This document shows, in pieces, positions 19,140 to 34,279 of a stretch of 64,000 bases of DNA; position 1 is the stretch's first letter; each line of letters opens with the position of its first letter. Where the stretch lies: positions 4,160,001 to 4,224,000 of the forward strand of contig OZ219747.1 of the NCBI GenBank assembly GCA_964291265.2. Reading direction: 5' to 3'. The translations under genes and the position numbers were made by a program. The stretch comes from Alphaproteobacteria bacterium (lineage in GTDB: Bacteria > Pseudomonadota > Alphaproteobacteria > SP197). The notes under the pieces are model-generated. The model was not told the origin of the DNA and ran no database searches. It worked only from the letters and a program-made list of their open reading frames with translations.

Positions 19140-22100
19140 TCACTCGGCGGGTGCCGGCACGTCGGCGGCGGGGGCGCCTCGGCCCAGGAAGAGACGCCCG
19201 AAATCGGCCTGAATGGCGATCAGGGACGGCACGACGAACAGGACCAGAAGGGTTGCGACCATCAGCCCGAAGACCAGGGTAATCGCCATCGGGATCAGGA
19301 ACTGTGCCTGGAGGTCGGTCTCGAACAGGAGGGGCGTCAGGCCGCCGACGGTCGTCGCCGTGGTCAGGATGATGGCGCGCAGCCTGTCGCGCGAACCGTT
19401 CGCGATGGCCTCGTAGGCCGGTTCGCCGGCCTCCATTCGCTCCTTCACCACCATGACCAGGATGATGGAATTGTTGACCACGATGCCCGAGAGGCCGATC
19501 AACCCGATCATGCTGAGGCTGCTCAAGTCGAAGCCCATCAGGTAATGACCCAGCACCGCGCCGATGAAACCCATCGGGATGACAGACATGACGATCAGCG
19601 GCCGCAGATAGCCGGCAAACACCCAGGCCAGGATGATGAAGACCAGGGCAAGGCCGATGCCGGCACCGATCCGTGTGTCCTTGAAGATGCGCCTCTGTTC
19701 CTTGTCGCGCCCCTCAAAGCGGTATTCGACGCCGTATTTCCGGGCGATGTCGTCCAGTCCGGACTCCTTCATTTCGGCGACCGCCTGCTGGGTCGTCATG
19801 ACGCGGGTATTGAGATCCGCCGTCACCGCGACCTCGCGCAGCCCGTCCTCGCTCTTGATCCGGGCGAAGCCCTGTCTTTCCCGAATGCTGACGACAGCGC
19901 CCAGCGGCACGAAACTGCCGTTGGGCGCGCGAAGATGCAGGCTGTGCAGCGCCTCGGAAGTCAGCCGGTCTTTCGGGAACCGCACCCGGACGACGACCTC
20001 CTCGTCGCCGCGGGCAAACCGTTTGGCGATTGCCCCCTCGAAGGTGTTGCGGACCTGCCGGCCGACGCTTTCCGTCGTGAAGCCGAGCGCCCGGCCGCGC
20101 GGGGACAGCTCAAGGATCGTTTCGACCTTGCCGTAGGGCAGATTGTCCTCCGTCGTCAGGACGCCCGGAATCGTCTTGAGAACGAGCTTCAGCTCCTCGG
20201 CCGCCTTCTTCAGCTCGAAGGACGACGCGCCGGTCAGGCGGACGTCGACATCCCGGCCCGGCGGCCCACCGGTCGCCGACTCGATCTTCAGCTGCTGCAG
20301 CCCGGGCATGTTGCGGATCCGTTCTTTCCAGGCCGCGATGAACCGGTCCGCCTGGATCGTACGCTGGTCGGCCGGGACAAGCTGCACGAACATGCTGCCG
20401 ACATGGTCGCCCTCGATAGGCGATTCGGCAGCCGACCGAGTGCCGATGGGAAAGCCGATCACGCGGTAGCTGAAAAGGACCAGGCCGTTCTTGCCGCCGG
20501 TCAGGTCGCGTTCCGTGGCACGCATGGCCTGTTCCATCTCTTCGACCATGGTGCGGGTGTGCTCCCGCGGCGTTCCGGCGGAAAACTCCGCAGTGGCAAA
20601 GATATTGTCCAGCTCCGGATTGGCGAAGAAAACGAAGTTGATGCGCCCGCCTGCGACGATGGATGCCGCGCCGATCAGGGCGGCGAGCGCAAGTGCGACA
20701 GTCGTGTAGCGCCAGCGTATCGCGAGGCAGACGAACGGGAAGAACATCCGCTCGCGGAAAAATTCGAACGCGTGATCGAACCCGCGCTTGAACGTCATCA
20801 GGACCCGGATGAGCAGGCGGAGAGCGAGAACCGGGGGAATCAAGGGCCAGAGCCAGACGAGAGGGATGCCGAACAGCGGTGCGAACCAGCGCCTCGGGAG
20901 GCCGCGCCGGCGGTCTGTGATCGCCAGCGCATGGCGCATGTGTCCAGGCAACACCAGGAAGCACTCGACCAGGCTGGCGACGATCACGGCGATCACCACG
21001 AGCGGAATGGTCCGGATGATCGAGCCGATGACATCGGTTATCAGCAGCAGCGGCAGAAATGCCGCGATCGTTGTCAGCGCCGCGCAGAATACCGGCATCG
21101 CCATGCGCCGGGCGCCGGCTTCGGCCGCCAGCGCATGGTCATGACCCTGCCGGTGCAGCGCCTCGGAATGCTCGCCGACGACGATGGCGTCGTCGACGAT
21201 GATGCCGATCGCCATGATGATGCTGAACAGGCTGACCATGTTCACGGACTGGCCGGACACCCACATCACCAGCATCGTCGCGGCCAGCGAGATCGGGATG
21301 CCGGCAGCCACCCAGAACGCCACCCAGCCGTTCAGGAACAGGAACAGGACGACAAGGACAATCAGCAGTCCGGTCGCGCCGTTCTCGAGCAGCAGGTTGA
21401 TGCGGCTGCGCACCAGGTCCGCCTGAACGTCGAACCGCTCCAGTTTCAGATTCGGCGGCAGGGTCGGACCGATTTCCGCAAGATACTTCTCGACCTCGTC
21501 CGCCAGGATCAGGGCATCGTCCGCAGGCGCGCGTTTGGCGTGCAGTTCGATGGCGCGGTTGCCGCCCCGCCAGTAGGTTCGTCCGTCGCTGTCGAAGGTC
21601 TCGCGCACCGTCGCGATATCGCGCAGCAGGATCTTCTCGCCGCTGGCGAGCGACTTGATCTCGATCCTGCCGAGTTCCCGGGCCGACTTGACGTCACCGA
21701 CGCTGCGCAGCTGGCGTTCCGCCCGGCCCGCGACATCGCCGGACGGAACGTCCTGCGTGATCTTGTGGATTTTCTGCGCCACCTCATTCAGGGTAAGGTT
21801 CATGCGGCGCAGCGTTTCCGGCTTGATTTCAACCAGAATCTCCTCGTCGCGCCCACCGCCGATGTCGATCTTGTCGATCCCCCGCCGGAGAAGTCCGTCG
21901 CGAACCTGCTTGGCGTATGCCTTGAGGGCCGATTCCGAGTACGGCCCGGACACCAGGATACGCGACAACGTATCGTATCGGACGATCCGCCGGACCGTCG
22001 GAGTCTCGGCATCCTGAGGGAGGGTGGTCACCTGGCCGATCGCGGTTTCGACATTCGCGAGCGCGCTCTGCATGTCCGAACCTGCCTCGAACTCCACCGT

Positions 22101-22460
22101 GATCAGCGCCCGCCCTTCGAACGCCGAGGATTTCACCGCCTTCACACTGTCGATGAAGCGGACTTCCCGCTCGACGGCCTGGACGATGCTGGCGTCGACA
22201 TCGCCGGCGCTGGCACCGGGCCAAGCGACGGTCACCAGCACCATATCGATGCCGAAATCGGGAAAGAACTGGGTGGTCATCCGGTTCAGGCCGAACGCTC
22301 CGGCAACGAACATGAGCACCATGAGCAGGTTCGCCGCCGTCCGGTGATGCGCGAACAGGCCGATCAGATCGCGCTTGCTGTGCACCTGGTGCGGCCCGAA
22401 GCCGACAGCGGAGCGCCAGGGGAGGGCAGGCATGGCCGGGCGGTCTTGCGGCGCTGTCAC
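19140..22460 (-). CDS. RND efflux permease (AcrB/CusA superfamily)
   Basis: 1106 aa; GIIVDDAIVVGE, TTIAAFLP, GIVVNNSI, RLRAIILT. Confidence 0.96.
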   Translation of the reverse strand: MTAPQDRPAMPALPWRSAVGFGPHQVHSKRDLIGLFAHHRTAANLLMVLMFVAGAFGLNRMTTQFFPDFGIDMVLVTVAWPGASAGDVDASIVQAVEREVRFIDSVKAVKSSAFEGRALITVEFEAGSDMQSALANVETAIGQVTTLPQDAETPTVRRIVRYDTLSRILVSGPYSESALKAYAKQVRDGLLRRGIDKIDIGGGRDEEILVEIKPETLRRMNLTLNEVAQKIHKITQDVPSGDVAGRAERQLRSVGDVKSARELGRIEIKSLASGEKILLRDIATVRETFDSDGRTYWRGGNRAIELHAKRAPADDALILADEVEKYLAEIGPTLPPNLKLERFDVQADLVRSRINLLLENGATGLLIVLVVLFLFLNGWVAFWVAAGIPISLAATMLVMWVSGQSVNMVSLFSIIMAIGIIVDDAIVVGEHSEALHRQGHDHALAAEAGARRMAMPVFCAALTTIAAFLPLLLITDVIGSIIRTIPLVVIAVIVASLVECFLVLPGHMRHALAITDRRRGLPRRWFAPLFGIPLVWLWPLIPPVLALRLLIRVLMTFKRGFDHAFEFFRERMFFPFVCLAIRWRYTTVALALAALIGAASIVAGGRINFVFFANPELDNIFATAEFSAGTPREHTRTMVEEMEQAMRATERDLTGGKNGLVLFSYRVIGFPIGTRSAAESPIEGDHVGSMFVQLVPADQRTIQADRFIAAWKERIRNMPGLQQLKIESATGGPPGRDVDVRLTGASSFELKKAAEELKLVLKTIPGVLTTEDNLPYGKVETILELSPRGRALGFTTESVGRQVRNTFEGAIAKRFARGDEEVVVRVRFPKDRLTSEALHSLHLRAPNGSFVPLGAVVSIRERQGFARIKSEDGLREVAVTADLNTRVMTTQQAVAEMKESGLDDIARKYGVEYRFEGRDKEQRRIFKDTRIGAGIGLALVFIILAWVFAGYLRPLIVMSVIPMGFIGAVLGHYLMGFDLSSLSMIGLIGLSGIVVNNSIILVMVVKERMEAGEPAYEAIANGSRDRLRAIILTTATTVGGLTPLLFETDLQAQFLIPMAITLVFGLMVATLLVLFVVPSLIAIQADFGRLFLGRGAPAADVPAPAE

Positions 22461-33236: not shown

Positions 33237-34279
33237 GACTTTCCCAGATCATAACCGAGACGTTCGAGGCTCGGTCGGCATGCTTCGGTCAAGGCGGCGC
33301 GTTCGGCGGGATTGAGGTCTCCCAGCTTCGAGTGTGTCGGGCGGGGGATCCGCGCCGCCTCCTTGACCCATTCCGGATTTTCGAGAGACGGGTCGAGAAA
33401 CCGCACCAAGCGCGCAATCTCCTTTTCCGGTTCGCTCTGCATGTCCTCGAATCGCACACGCAGAACCCTTTCCGGCGGAAGCGTGTCGAGAAACCGATCC
33501 GCCAGCTCCACTATGTCCGACCAGAACTTCCCGAATTCAGGAAGGGAGAATTCCCGGTCTCTGGTTCTGCTGAACAGAAAGACGACATAGACAAGGAGTT
33601 GCGTGCGCAGCATCGCCCAGTCTCGGAACGCATGTCCCGAGACCCCTGTCATCGGTTTCAATGCATCCACGCCATACTTCCTCATGGTCACGATGTAGCG
33701 CATGGCTTCGCGGAACACAGGATGCTTCTTCATTGACATGGCTGTATCGCGCCCGTCGCGGTAGAGGTGGATGAACTTCGCCTCGGGAAACATCGCAGCC
33801 AACCTCGGCGCATACATCCCGGCCCCGCCGGAGCGCTCCACCCAGACCCTTCGGTCGAACTTCCGGCGTAGCCAGGCAAACATCGCTCGATAGTGATCGG
33901 CCGCATACTGGCGCGGCTGCGAGCGGATCATCGGCTCGAGTTCGTCGAGCAGGTCGTCGGGCCTGTCGGTGATGTGCGGAAGCGTAACCCACGAAATGGG
34001 GGGTATCCTGGCGCCGGAATAGCGGCCACGCGGGGTGCCGACCGGGTACAGAAGAGCTTCGGAGTGGCCGCCGAGTTGCCGGCGCTGGGCCCTTGTCTGC
34101 TTGCTCATGATGTTCCACATCTCGTTGCCGGTCAGGCGCCGGAAGTGAAACAGGGCGCGACCCTGCAGGATGAACAGCTCGGATATGCTGAGAATGTCCG
34201 GGTGCGAATTCAGAACATCGGACAGCATGGTCGAACCACAGCGCCCGGAACTGACGACGATTGCTGGAGGGATGTCCAT
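33233..34279 (-). CDS. PAPS-dependent sulfotransferase family protein (copy B)
   Basis: SSGRCGSTML...HPDILSISE, WVERSGG, RDGRDTAMSM, VRFEDM; ATGA overlap with the fusion gene. Confidence 0.9.
   Translation of the reverse strand: MDIPPAIVVSSGRCGSTMLSDVLNSHPDILSISELFILQGRALFHFRRLTGNEMWNIMSKQTRAQRRQLGGHSEALLYPVGTPRGRYSGARIPPISWVTLPHITDRPDDLLDELEPMIRSQPRQYAADHYRAMFAWLRRKFDRRVWVERSGGAGMYAPRLAAMFPEAKFIHLYRDGRDTAMSMKKHPVFREAMRYIVTMRKYGVDALKPMTGVSGHAFRDWAMLRTQLLVYVVFLFSRTRDREFSLPEFGKFWSDIVELADRFLDTLPPERVLRVRFEDMQSEPEKEIARLVRFLDPSLENPEWVKEAARIPRPTHSKLGDLNPAERAALTEACRPSLERLGYDLGKS

Follow-up and report, generated by a model that had tools for sequence, protein, structure and literature searches.

A conserved alphaproteobacterial gene cluster with two sulfotransferases, an acylase and an AlkB-GlnE fusion, and its possible role in oxidation, sulfation and export

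The window analyzed here is a 64,000-nucleotide stretch of an alphaproteobacterial genome (GenBank assembly GCA_964291265.2, contig OZ219747.1, positions 4,160,001 to 4,224,000). It carries a cluster of seven genes: two for sulfotransferases (A and B), one each for a MATE transporter, an Ntn-hydrolase acylase and a fusion of an AlkB-like membrane oxidase to a GlnE-derived domain, and a pair for an RND permease and its periplasmic adaptor. Sulfotransferase A, MATE, acylase, fusion and sulfotransferase B, hereafter the core, constitute a co-inherited unit under purifying selection. We tentatively propose that the core converts a ready-made, fat-soluble amide, probably from the host or the surroundings, to a sulfated product that is exported. 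That oxidation, sulfation and export act in series on one substrate is the part of this proposal that we consider likely. All seven open reading frames (ORFs) are uninterrupted and match named families. An earlier account of this DNA made from the letters alone (the sequence-only reading) had described seven intact genes with these families and orientations and two ATGA overlaps, and all of this held. No description of the cluster, or of the sulfotransferase-linked clade of the fusion, was found in the literature searched, subscription papers lying outside the search; the accessible parts of PMC9426513 and PMC11832590 do not describe the cluster.

Conservation of the five-gene core

The core is present at nine loci in eight genomes: that of the window (G000) and related alphaproteobacterial genomes (G002, G473 twice, G474, G475, G476, G477 and G478; L numbers below denote loci). 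Homologues therefore co-localize, a point that the sequence-only reading had put forward for checking. The acylase is interrupted in one of the two G473 copies, ∼9 kb insertions separate the two blocks in G474, and codon 677 of the G478 fusion is a stop. A genome scan with the fusion sequence alone retrieved 17 loci; the seven with fusions at 65–85% identity all have sulfotransferases, and the ten at 30–41% identity have none.

Two gene orders occur. The genes run A-MATE-acylase-fusion-B on a single strand in G002, G475 and G476; a B-fusion block converges on an A-MATE-acylase block in G000, G473, G477 and G478. A single block inversion cannot convert the first order to the second, and trees of all five core genes (seven genomes) show the same deep split, which matches the two orders. 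The convergent blocks of the window lie 678 bp apart. An ATGA overlap of MATE and acylase is read in the sequence at 27681–27684, and a second joins the sulfotransferase B stop to the fusion start at 33233–33236. The adaptor-RND pair is divergent from sulfotransferase A (Table 1).

Selection had earlier been supposed from the intactness of the genes, and substitution ratios bear this out. The ratio of nonsynonymous to synonymous rates (dN/dS) is 0.10–0.30 in 30 of 30 gene-by-orthologue comparisons; these figures cover the five core genes and are rough in the most distant pairs (dS > 1). By gene, the ranges are 0.11–0.15 for sulfotransferase A, 0.10–0.17 for sulfotransferase B, 0.13–0.29 for MATE and 0.21–0.30 for the acylase.

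The sulfotransferase family is closely bound to the cluster in these genomes. All 12 copies found in five cluster genomes searched whole lie inside it. The genome of the window (4.8 Mb, two contigs, C1 and C2, rated 100% complete) has no stray member of the subfamily: three of three copies are within ∼5 kb of one of its two fusion genes, which is closer than chance would place them. A paralogous cluster (C2:1828506-1838115; L001, L002) comprises an RND gene, an adaptor, a 45%-identical fusion, a P450 and the third sulfotransferase; its syntenic counterpart in G002 (L025) has the same set together with an acylase and a further sulfotransferase. Distribution is patchy. The sulfotransferase occurs in 4 of 33 genomes of the window's family, and MATE matches at E ≤ 1e-30 occur in 3 of the 33, each at the cluster or a cluster remnant. 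What is left in the G005 remnant (L066:6722-11685) is a sulfotransferase A orthologue and a MATE fragment, inserted next to the housekeeping cysD-cysNC.

Accessory genes with no relation to one another, gathered by chance in an island rich in mobile elements, might look similar at first sight, given the IS66 pieces and other repeats that flank the block and the differing subtypes that fill the RND slot. Such a chance assembly would hardly be kept over two gene orders, nine loci, a paralogous cluster, a common tree split and purifying selection. We regard chance as very improbable; synteny and selection reject it for the five core genes, and it may yet apply to the RND pair. An RND gene is found in eight of the nine core loci at 29–64% identity to that of the window (three subtypes at 44–64%, one at 29%), and the adaptor is intact in four. 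The earlier inclusion of the pair in the system is thus backed by its recurrence and weakened by the several subtypes that occupy its place: the RND pump is a recurring but exchangeable part, a looser member.

Table 1. Features of the cluster, in window coordinates
Feature	Position	Strand	Basis and remarks
RND permease (AcrB/D/F family)	19140-22460	-	Pfam ACR_tran 1.6e-152; start GTG 22460 or ATG 22433
RND periplasmic adaptor	22471-23943	-	TIGR01730 above cut-off; start uncertain, 23943 or 23784
cysNC remnant, frameshifted and internally deleted	24459-24990	+	tblastn; directly upstream of sulfotransferase A
Sulfotransferase A	25084-26130	+	Pfam Sulfotransfer_3; ATG 25084 gives 348 aa, as in orthologues; longest ORF from TTG 25009
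MATE transporter	26257-27684	+	Pfam MatE; longest ORF from 26170
Ntn-hydrolase acylase	27681-30107	+	Pfam Penicil_amidase 9e-211
AlkB-GlnE fusion, 816 aa	30786-33236	-	Pfam FA_desaturase and GlnD_UR_UTase/GlnE in one chain
AlkB-like membrane diiron oxidase domain, fusion residues 1-375	32112-33236	-	PDB 8f6t and 8sbb, sequence and fold
GlnE-derived half, fusion residues 376-816	30786-32111	-	hhalign to the genome's own GlnE; fold 1v4a, 3k7d
Sulfotransferase B	33233-34279	-	Pfam Sulfotransfer_3

The AlkB-GlnE fusion and its two clades

The first 375 residues of the fusion match AlkB by sequence and fold. The likeness to the alkane 1-monooxygenase of Fontimonas thermophila (FtAlkB; 8f6t, 8sbb) takes in fold, membrane topology and nine histidines (H132, H136, H162, H166, H167, H267, H305, H308, H309), which are invariant in 31 of 31 aligned fusions and are the AlkB iron ligands in the published accounts as far as accessible (PMC10110569, PMC10113152). 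The fusion differs from FtAlkB as follows: Gln replaces Glu271, a basic residue stands six places earlier, and the GlnE-derived half takes the place of rubredoxin. The basic position (fusion residues 260–266, window 32400–32460, reckoned back from the Gln of the HYG motif) is Arg or Lys in 55 of 55 fusions; in stand-alone relatives it is mostly Glu, Leu or Thr and basic in at most 2 of 38. Unlike AlkB systems, the cluster has no alkane-degradation genes among its conserved neighbors, and no paper linking an AlkB-GlnE fusion to alkanes was found in the literature searched.

Fusion residues 378–816 align to residues 562–995 of the genome's own GlnE (1000 aa; hhalign E 4e-43). The aligned part covers the last portion of the central region and all of the adenylyltransferase domain, and a lineage-specific segment is common to the fusion and that GlnE; the N-terminal adenylyl-removase domain is absent, the homology beginning at own-GlnE residue 562. 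Foldseek matches this half to the nucleotidyltransferase fold (1v4a, 3k7d). Although homologous to the GlnE C-terminal domain (3k7d), the fusion lacks both the removase domain and the catalytic motif. That motif is given as G-X11-D-X-D in the part of PMC12409994 consulted, and the genome's own GlnE keeps it. The fusion reads G538...E550-I-E552 and has lost the Lys after the Gly; none of 22 rows of the sulfotransferase clade retains both motif Asp, and all 22 lack the third. Active GlnE function is rejected on this loss. The sequence-only reading had taken the half for a GlnE domain; judged by its residues, it is instead a catalytically degenerate pseudo-enzyme. Selection is strongest (dN/dS 0.08–0.17) on residues 376–505, the GlnE central-region piece, compared with 0.12–0.21 for the AlkB domain, and weaker on the nucleotidyltransferase fold (0.19–0.38) and the C-terminal helices (0.30–0.51). 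The half is likely to have been retained for a docking, structural or regulatory role.

A quick IQ-TREE tree was built from 98 AlkB-domain rows, after removal of matches that contained stops or fell short of 230 residues. All 56 fusions group together (SH-aLRT 95) and split into a sulfotransferase-linked clade (n = 10, SH-aLRT 100) and a clade linked to the srp proteusin clusters (n = 46, SH-aLRT 99). A metagenome scan with the fusion alignment gave 80 loci, and neighbors were examined at 39: 38 have fusion-type or truncated genes (29–40% identity) and one is stand-alone. A YcaO or nitrile-hydratase-like leader gene is present at 25 of 37 metagenome fusion loci, with precursors that end in LCCCW or LSCCG. 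The sulfotransferase of the cluster was found at none of the 39 metagenome loci, many of them on short contigs, and at none of 14 srp-type loci from genomes.

The srp clusters (bioRxiv 10.1101/2023.06.09.544420; PMC9426513), as far as these sources are accessible, share with the cluster a sister clade of the AlkB-pseudo-GlnE fusion (∼33% identity) and, at some loci, a related RND gene. The cluster differs in having no precursor peptide or YcaO: neither a nitrile hydratase leader peptide (NHLP) precursor with an LCCCW-type core nor a YcaO was found in the window gene calls or the nine core loci. In turn, srp loci have no match to the family sulfotransferase, the acylase or the MATE. The fusion thus has a second, non-peptide context, which should help to assign the function of its srp-cluster counterpart. 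Srp clusters of sponges are described with precursors ending in LCCCW and an ITEEQL leader motif (bioRxiv 10.1101/2023.06.09.544420, in part). Because genomes of the same genus as the window's have precursors of this kind, by analogy the bacteria are likely sponge-associated.

A number of observations were made alongside. The srp-type clusters (L028-L037, L045-L048, L102-L138) also contain an MMPL transporter, a methyltransferase, one or two ∼370-aa proteins that match nothing in Pfam and a ∼440-aa leader-domain protein with a weak squalene-cyclase-like tail; some have a polyprenyl synthase as well. The window's genome has an NHLP/YcaO cluster of its own at C1:80000-92200 (L068). Besides its two YcaO genes it has genes for an azoline oxidase, a LanM-like protein and an outer-membrane channel, and three small ORFs of the leader type; no AlkB-GlnE gene lies within the retrieved region. 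An origin of the fusion from adjacent alkB and glnE in Paracoccaceae was considered and rejected, there being no glnE beside the stand-alone genes at L050, L053 and L054 (L051 is poorly called). A second GlnE-like gene (C1:121630-124407, 925 aa) has a C-terminal nucleotidyltransferase motif that also looks degenerate, and weak matches of similar length occur in several genomes of the same genus. The single PII of the genome (L182:1501-1836, C2:331606) has His for the usual Arg at position 38, a feature of 13 of the 28 listed PII sequences, each from the same genus.

Sulfotransferases, oxygenase partners and sulfate supply

Sulfotransferases A and B are 50% identical and belong to distinct orthologue groups. 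Both belong to the PAPS-dependent type (PF13469/PF00685) and are single-domain and soluble: A has no membrane helix, and B is soluble by hydropathy. A keeps the motifs SSGRCGST and RDGR intact, and GRCGST and RDGR (the 5′-phosphosulfate loop and 3′-phosphate motif) are invariant in 39 of 39 family rows. The fold model (predicted local distance difference test score 89.7) matches sulfotransferase folds. The nearest solved structures to the sulfotransferase B model include CurM, olefin-synthase sulfotransferase domains and tyrosylprotein sulfotransferases; these are remote at 14–16% identity, with a TM-score of 0.44–0.47 for the CurM and olefin-synthase matches, and they differ among themselves in acceptor. 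A search of the ESM Atlas returned generic sulfotransferase clusters only, and a metagenome scan with sulfotransferase B alone gave 150 pattern matches, none of them confirmed. The subfamily has cultured carriers in Thalassobaculum and Tistlia (44–48% identity).

By fold and by sequence, sulfotransferase B has CurM and the olefin-synthase domains among its best matches, and in curacin biosynthesis, as set out in the accessible text of PMC3908369, the sulfate serves as a leaving group. Sulfation in the cluster could likewise be an activation, preparing an elimination or substitution, so that the exported product would be sulfate-free. Fusion of 15 of 49 long family members to α/β-hydrolase or thioesterase domains speaks for this. 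The remoteness of the CurM and olefin-synthase matches speaks against it, as do the lack of a thioesterase or carrier protein in the cluster and the presence of two exporters, which fit a charged product. We therefore judge activation to be quite improbable and retain sulfation as the final modification.

The company that this family keeps in other genomes was surveyed in a class sample of 400 genomes. The family occurs in nine others, of which eight were examined (the contigs of G260 are too short). An oxygenase adjoins the sulfotransferase or lies within 4 kb of it in six of the eight (MpaB/Lcp in four, P450 in two, the AlkB-GlnE fusion in one). An MpaB/Lcp-type heme oxygenase adjoins a family sulfotransferase in five alphaproteobacterial genomes (L065:12688-14897; L092; L093; L094; L097; L098), and the literature search found no paper on MpaB-sulfotransferase pairing in bacteria. 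One of these pairs stands behind a TetR gene and one with P450, cysNC and cysD. A TetR gene heads the pair in G209, the G150 row reads P450, two sulfotransferases, MpaB, cysNC and cysD, and G020 has an MpaB-sulfotransferase pair. Among four plasmid loci, an adjacent P450 is present at one; three carry a divergent FabH-like operon together with a TetR gene upstream of the sulfotransferase, and this placement of TetR would resemble ligand-induced systems. In the paralogous cluster of both G000 and G002, the P450 is directly upstream of the sulfotransferase; it matches many CYP families at similar scores, which gives no substrate assignment. Ten of 49 long homologues carry the oxygenase in the same chain (eight P450 fusions, two ferritin-like diiron fusions), and the three best-scoring long homologues are among these ten. 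The family also includes reductase-sulfotransferase and carrier-protein fusions. An uncharacterized sulfotransferase subfamily with repeated oxygenase partners is thereby defined, and the pairing can be tested in the cultured carriers.

The sulfate donor of such enzymes, 3′-phosphoadenosine 5′-phosphosulfate (PAPS), has left its own mark on the cluster. CysNC sequence is present at nine of nine core loci. Intact cysD and cysNC occur in G002, G476 and G477, and cysNC with cysQ in G475; both G473 copies and G478 have an adenosine 5′-phosphosulfate (APS)-kinase half-gene, and G474 and the window have broken remnants. The window remnant, missed by the sequence-only reading, consists of tblastn pieces in three frames that are 61–70% identical to the APS-kinase ORF which L038 has at this position; its DNA is 76% identical over 399 bp. 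The earlier call to look for PAPS-synthesis genes has a positive answer both here and in relatives: the genome has an intact cysD-cysNC at C1:316567-319290, with a cysQ homologue on C2, and in relatives the genes lie within the cluster. PAPS may once have come from a cluster-linked cysD-cysNC copy that has decayed here, leaving the housekeeping copy to supply it.

A proposed route, its alternatives and the surroundings of the cluster

The best PDB matches of the acylase are D-succinylase and glutaryl-7-ACA acylase, whose β chains align from residue 255. The β-subunit nucleophile Ser is kept, the layout is α-spacer-β by alignment to 7ea4, and the protein has one N-terminal hydrophobic helix; it is predicted to be membrane-anchored and periplasmic. 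In the route that we propose, the anchored acylase would cleave an amide in the periplasm, and the released lipophilic part would reach the inner membrane. There the AlkB-like diiron domain would oxidize it, probably to an alcohol, with electrons from a donor other than rubredoxin; in this route, the domain would hydroxylate rather than desaturate. Sulfotransferases A and B would transfer sulfate from PAPS in the cytoplasm, at two sites or to two substrates, the MATE would carry the product, by then charged, into the periplasm, and from there the RND pump would expel it through a TolC-type channel encoded elsewhere. The GlnE half would serve as a non-enzymatic docking or regulatory module. We infer this order, from periplasm through membrane and cytoplasm to export, because the acylase is anchored, the sulfotransferases are soluble and the diiron site is cytoplasmic in AlkB structures. 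One membrane helix is predicted in the RND adaptor, and one OEP-family gene lies outside the RiPP (peptide made on the ribosome and modified after translation) cluster of the genome. It is the acylase and oxidase families that suggest a lipophilic amide as substrate. A ready-made substrate is favored by the absence of any scaffold-building enzyme among the conserved neighbors of the core loci, which agrees with the earlier statement that no polyketide synthase (PKS) or nonribosomal peptide synthetase (NRPS) core is present, and by the absence of a modular PKS from the genome (PF00109; one ketoacyl-synthase gene was found). Detoxification and product-making are both compatible with the cluster, and either may be its purpose.

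Several findings count against this proposal. The eight cluster genomes are one lineage, not independent, so that counts over them show co-inheritance and not independent origins. No conserved regulator was seen among the core-locus gene calls, in which singletons were partly scanned. No RND gene was seen at G477, and the adaptor is a 27-residue remnant at three loci. Among the 49 long sulfotransferase homologues, 39 have no oxygenase (21 glycosyltransferase, 15 α/β-hydrolase, 3 nothing named or other), which argues that the family is not tied to oxygenases; pairing is common, not a rule. Gln266 of the fusion stands where FtAlkB has Glu271, before the HYG motif, and rubredoxin (PF00301) was not found in G000 or in five cluster-bearing relatives by a search that detected it in 7 of 14 genomes. 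The fusion has its sister clade in srp peptide biosynthetic clusters. In G020 (L212:8770-19999), an RND gene 52% identical to that of the window lies beside 11 proteusin precursors; this array of nitrile-hydratase-like leader precursors adjoins an RND-adaptor pair.

The Gln and the missing rubredoxin bear on the oxidation step. Glu271 of FtAlkB is a ligand of Fe2 and lies 3.2 Å from the substrate methyl (PMC10113152, accessible part). It is replaced by Gln in 55 of 55 fusions read (10 of 10 in the sulfotransferase clade, 45 of 45 in the srp clade), a change through which the AlkB-like domain may desaturate or do other chemistry. The sulfotransferases could then use a hydroxyl or phenol that is there from the start or that the acylase releases, the AlkB-like domain modifying another position or molecule, for instance by desaturation, and the genes would be linked but not serial. 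The lack of rubredoxin from six cluster-bearing genomes and the tyrosylprotein sulfotransferases among the nearest solved folds of sulfotransferase B would suit this arrangement. However, Gln is also the commonest residue at this position in stand-alone AlkB-like proteins (26 of 38) and so is not a mark of the fusion, and both the translational coupling of sulfotransferase B to the fusion and the repeated pairing of oxygenases with sulfotransferases fit serial steps. We consider the non-serial arrangement improbable. For the phase I/II/III-like route of the sequence-only reading, the balance is mixed: P450 and MpaB neighbors and fusions back its oxygenase-sulfotransferase logic, and the Glu-to-Gln change and the missing rubredoxin weaken its hydroxylation step.

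The srp links bear on the purpose. The sister fusion in srp clusters and the G020 RND beside precursors point to biosynthesis rather than disposal, and form the main argument for a core-less biosynthetic cluster, in which the cell's own lipid, amide or peptide would be oxidized and sulfated in the cytoplasm, exported by the MATE, deacylated in the periplasm and secreted by the RND pump as a signal or defense compound. Srp RiPP clusters regularly include a fusion of the sister clade (YcaO or a leader at 25 of 37 metagenome loci), and an NHLP/YcaO cluster that lacks a fusion gene of its own lies in the genome at C1:80-92 kb. PAPS genes that belong to the cluster and a fixed pair of sulfotransferase orthologues suggest that the product is a defined one; the family also includes reductase-sulfotransferase and carrier-protein fusions. 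Set against this, no acyltransferase, ligase or bond-building gene accompanies the core, which leaves the removable acyl group without an evident origin; several genomes show decay of their cluster-linked PAPS genes; and the family sulfotransferase is missing from the srp-type loci (0 of 39 and 0 of 14). We hold core-less biosynthesis to be a serious possibility, though an unlikely one, and still tentatively prefer conversion of a ready-made amide.

Parts of the proposed route have precedents. In pyoverdine maturation, the Ntn acylase PvdQ works in the periplasm between inner-membrane export and efflux, and in Nod-factor sulfation NodH has its own PAPS-synthesis genes, NodPQ; both clusters have scaffold builders. 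The acylase of the core differs from PvdQ (50 bits against a 950-bit cut-off) and is closer to D-succinylase and glutaryl acylases. By analogy, the cluster would work most like the route proposed for swf, ending in an alkyl sulfate. In swf (SwfA, a PKS; SwfB, a reductase-sulfotransferase), as described in the accessible part of PMC3908369, an acyl chain is proposed to become a primary alcohol and then an alkyl sulfate in sponge bacteria. Swf uses a mono-modular type I PKS to build its chain and obtains the alcohol by reducing a thioester; the cluster has no PKS, would bring in oxygen through the membrane diiron oxidase, and adds acylase, MATE, RND and PAPS genes. Its single-domain sulfotransferases have no reductase fusion. 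The cluster belongs with none of swf, srp, canonical AlkB systems and GlnE.

A wider interpretation would make the cluster a three-phase biotransformation system (hydrolyze or oxidize, sulfate, pump) built on a sulfotransferase subfamily with interchangeable AlkB-like, P450 and MpaB-like oxygenases. Its membrane oxidase would have been recruited from clusters of the peptide-antibiotic type, with the dead GlnE half as a control or docking element, standing in for the rubredoxin arrangement or coupling the oxidase to nitrogen status. Taken whole, this is rather doubtful. Were it true, a share of the sulfated lipids or alkaloids attributed to animal hosts would come from symbionts that rework host molecules, and such clusters would escape mining that depends on core genes. 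In any case, the cluster offers a compact, testable gene set for sulfation without a PKS, NRPS or RiPP core in uncultured, likely sponge-associated bacteria.

The surroundings were described earlier as decayed mobile relics. This is so on the left, which has multi-copy IS66 pieces; on the right (∼35630–36520), where copies occur elsewhere in the genome and none of four ORFs matched Pfam, the label derives from copy number alone. Window positions 14940–18794 hold a frameshifted multi-copy IS66 element followed by a small gene pair and a WGR-domain ORF; the pair, which has no Pfam match, looks like a PIN-domain toxin-antitoxin module. A scan for promoters and terminators gave nothing above shuffled counts (1 versus 1.9; 4 versus 9.9). 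Between the convergent acylase and fusion genes lies a 61-bp element (30585–30644) with many ∼90%-identical copies across the chromosome. Further right are a gene for a protein rich in RTX calcium-binding repeats (36787–39354, minus strand), below the NCBIfam cut-offs for named RTX families, and one for a subtilase-domain protein with an autotransporter-like tail (39691–42162, plus strand). Near the paralogous cluster there is another RTX-repeat gene (L001:1-999).

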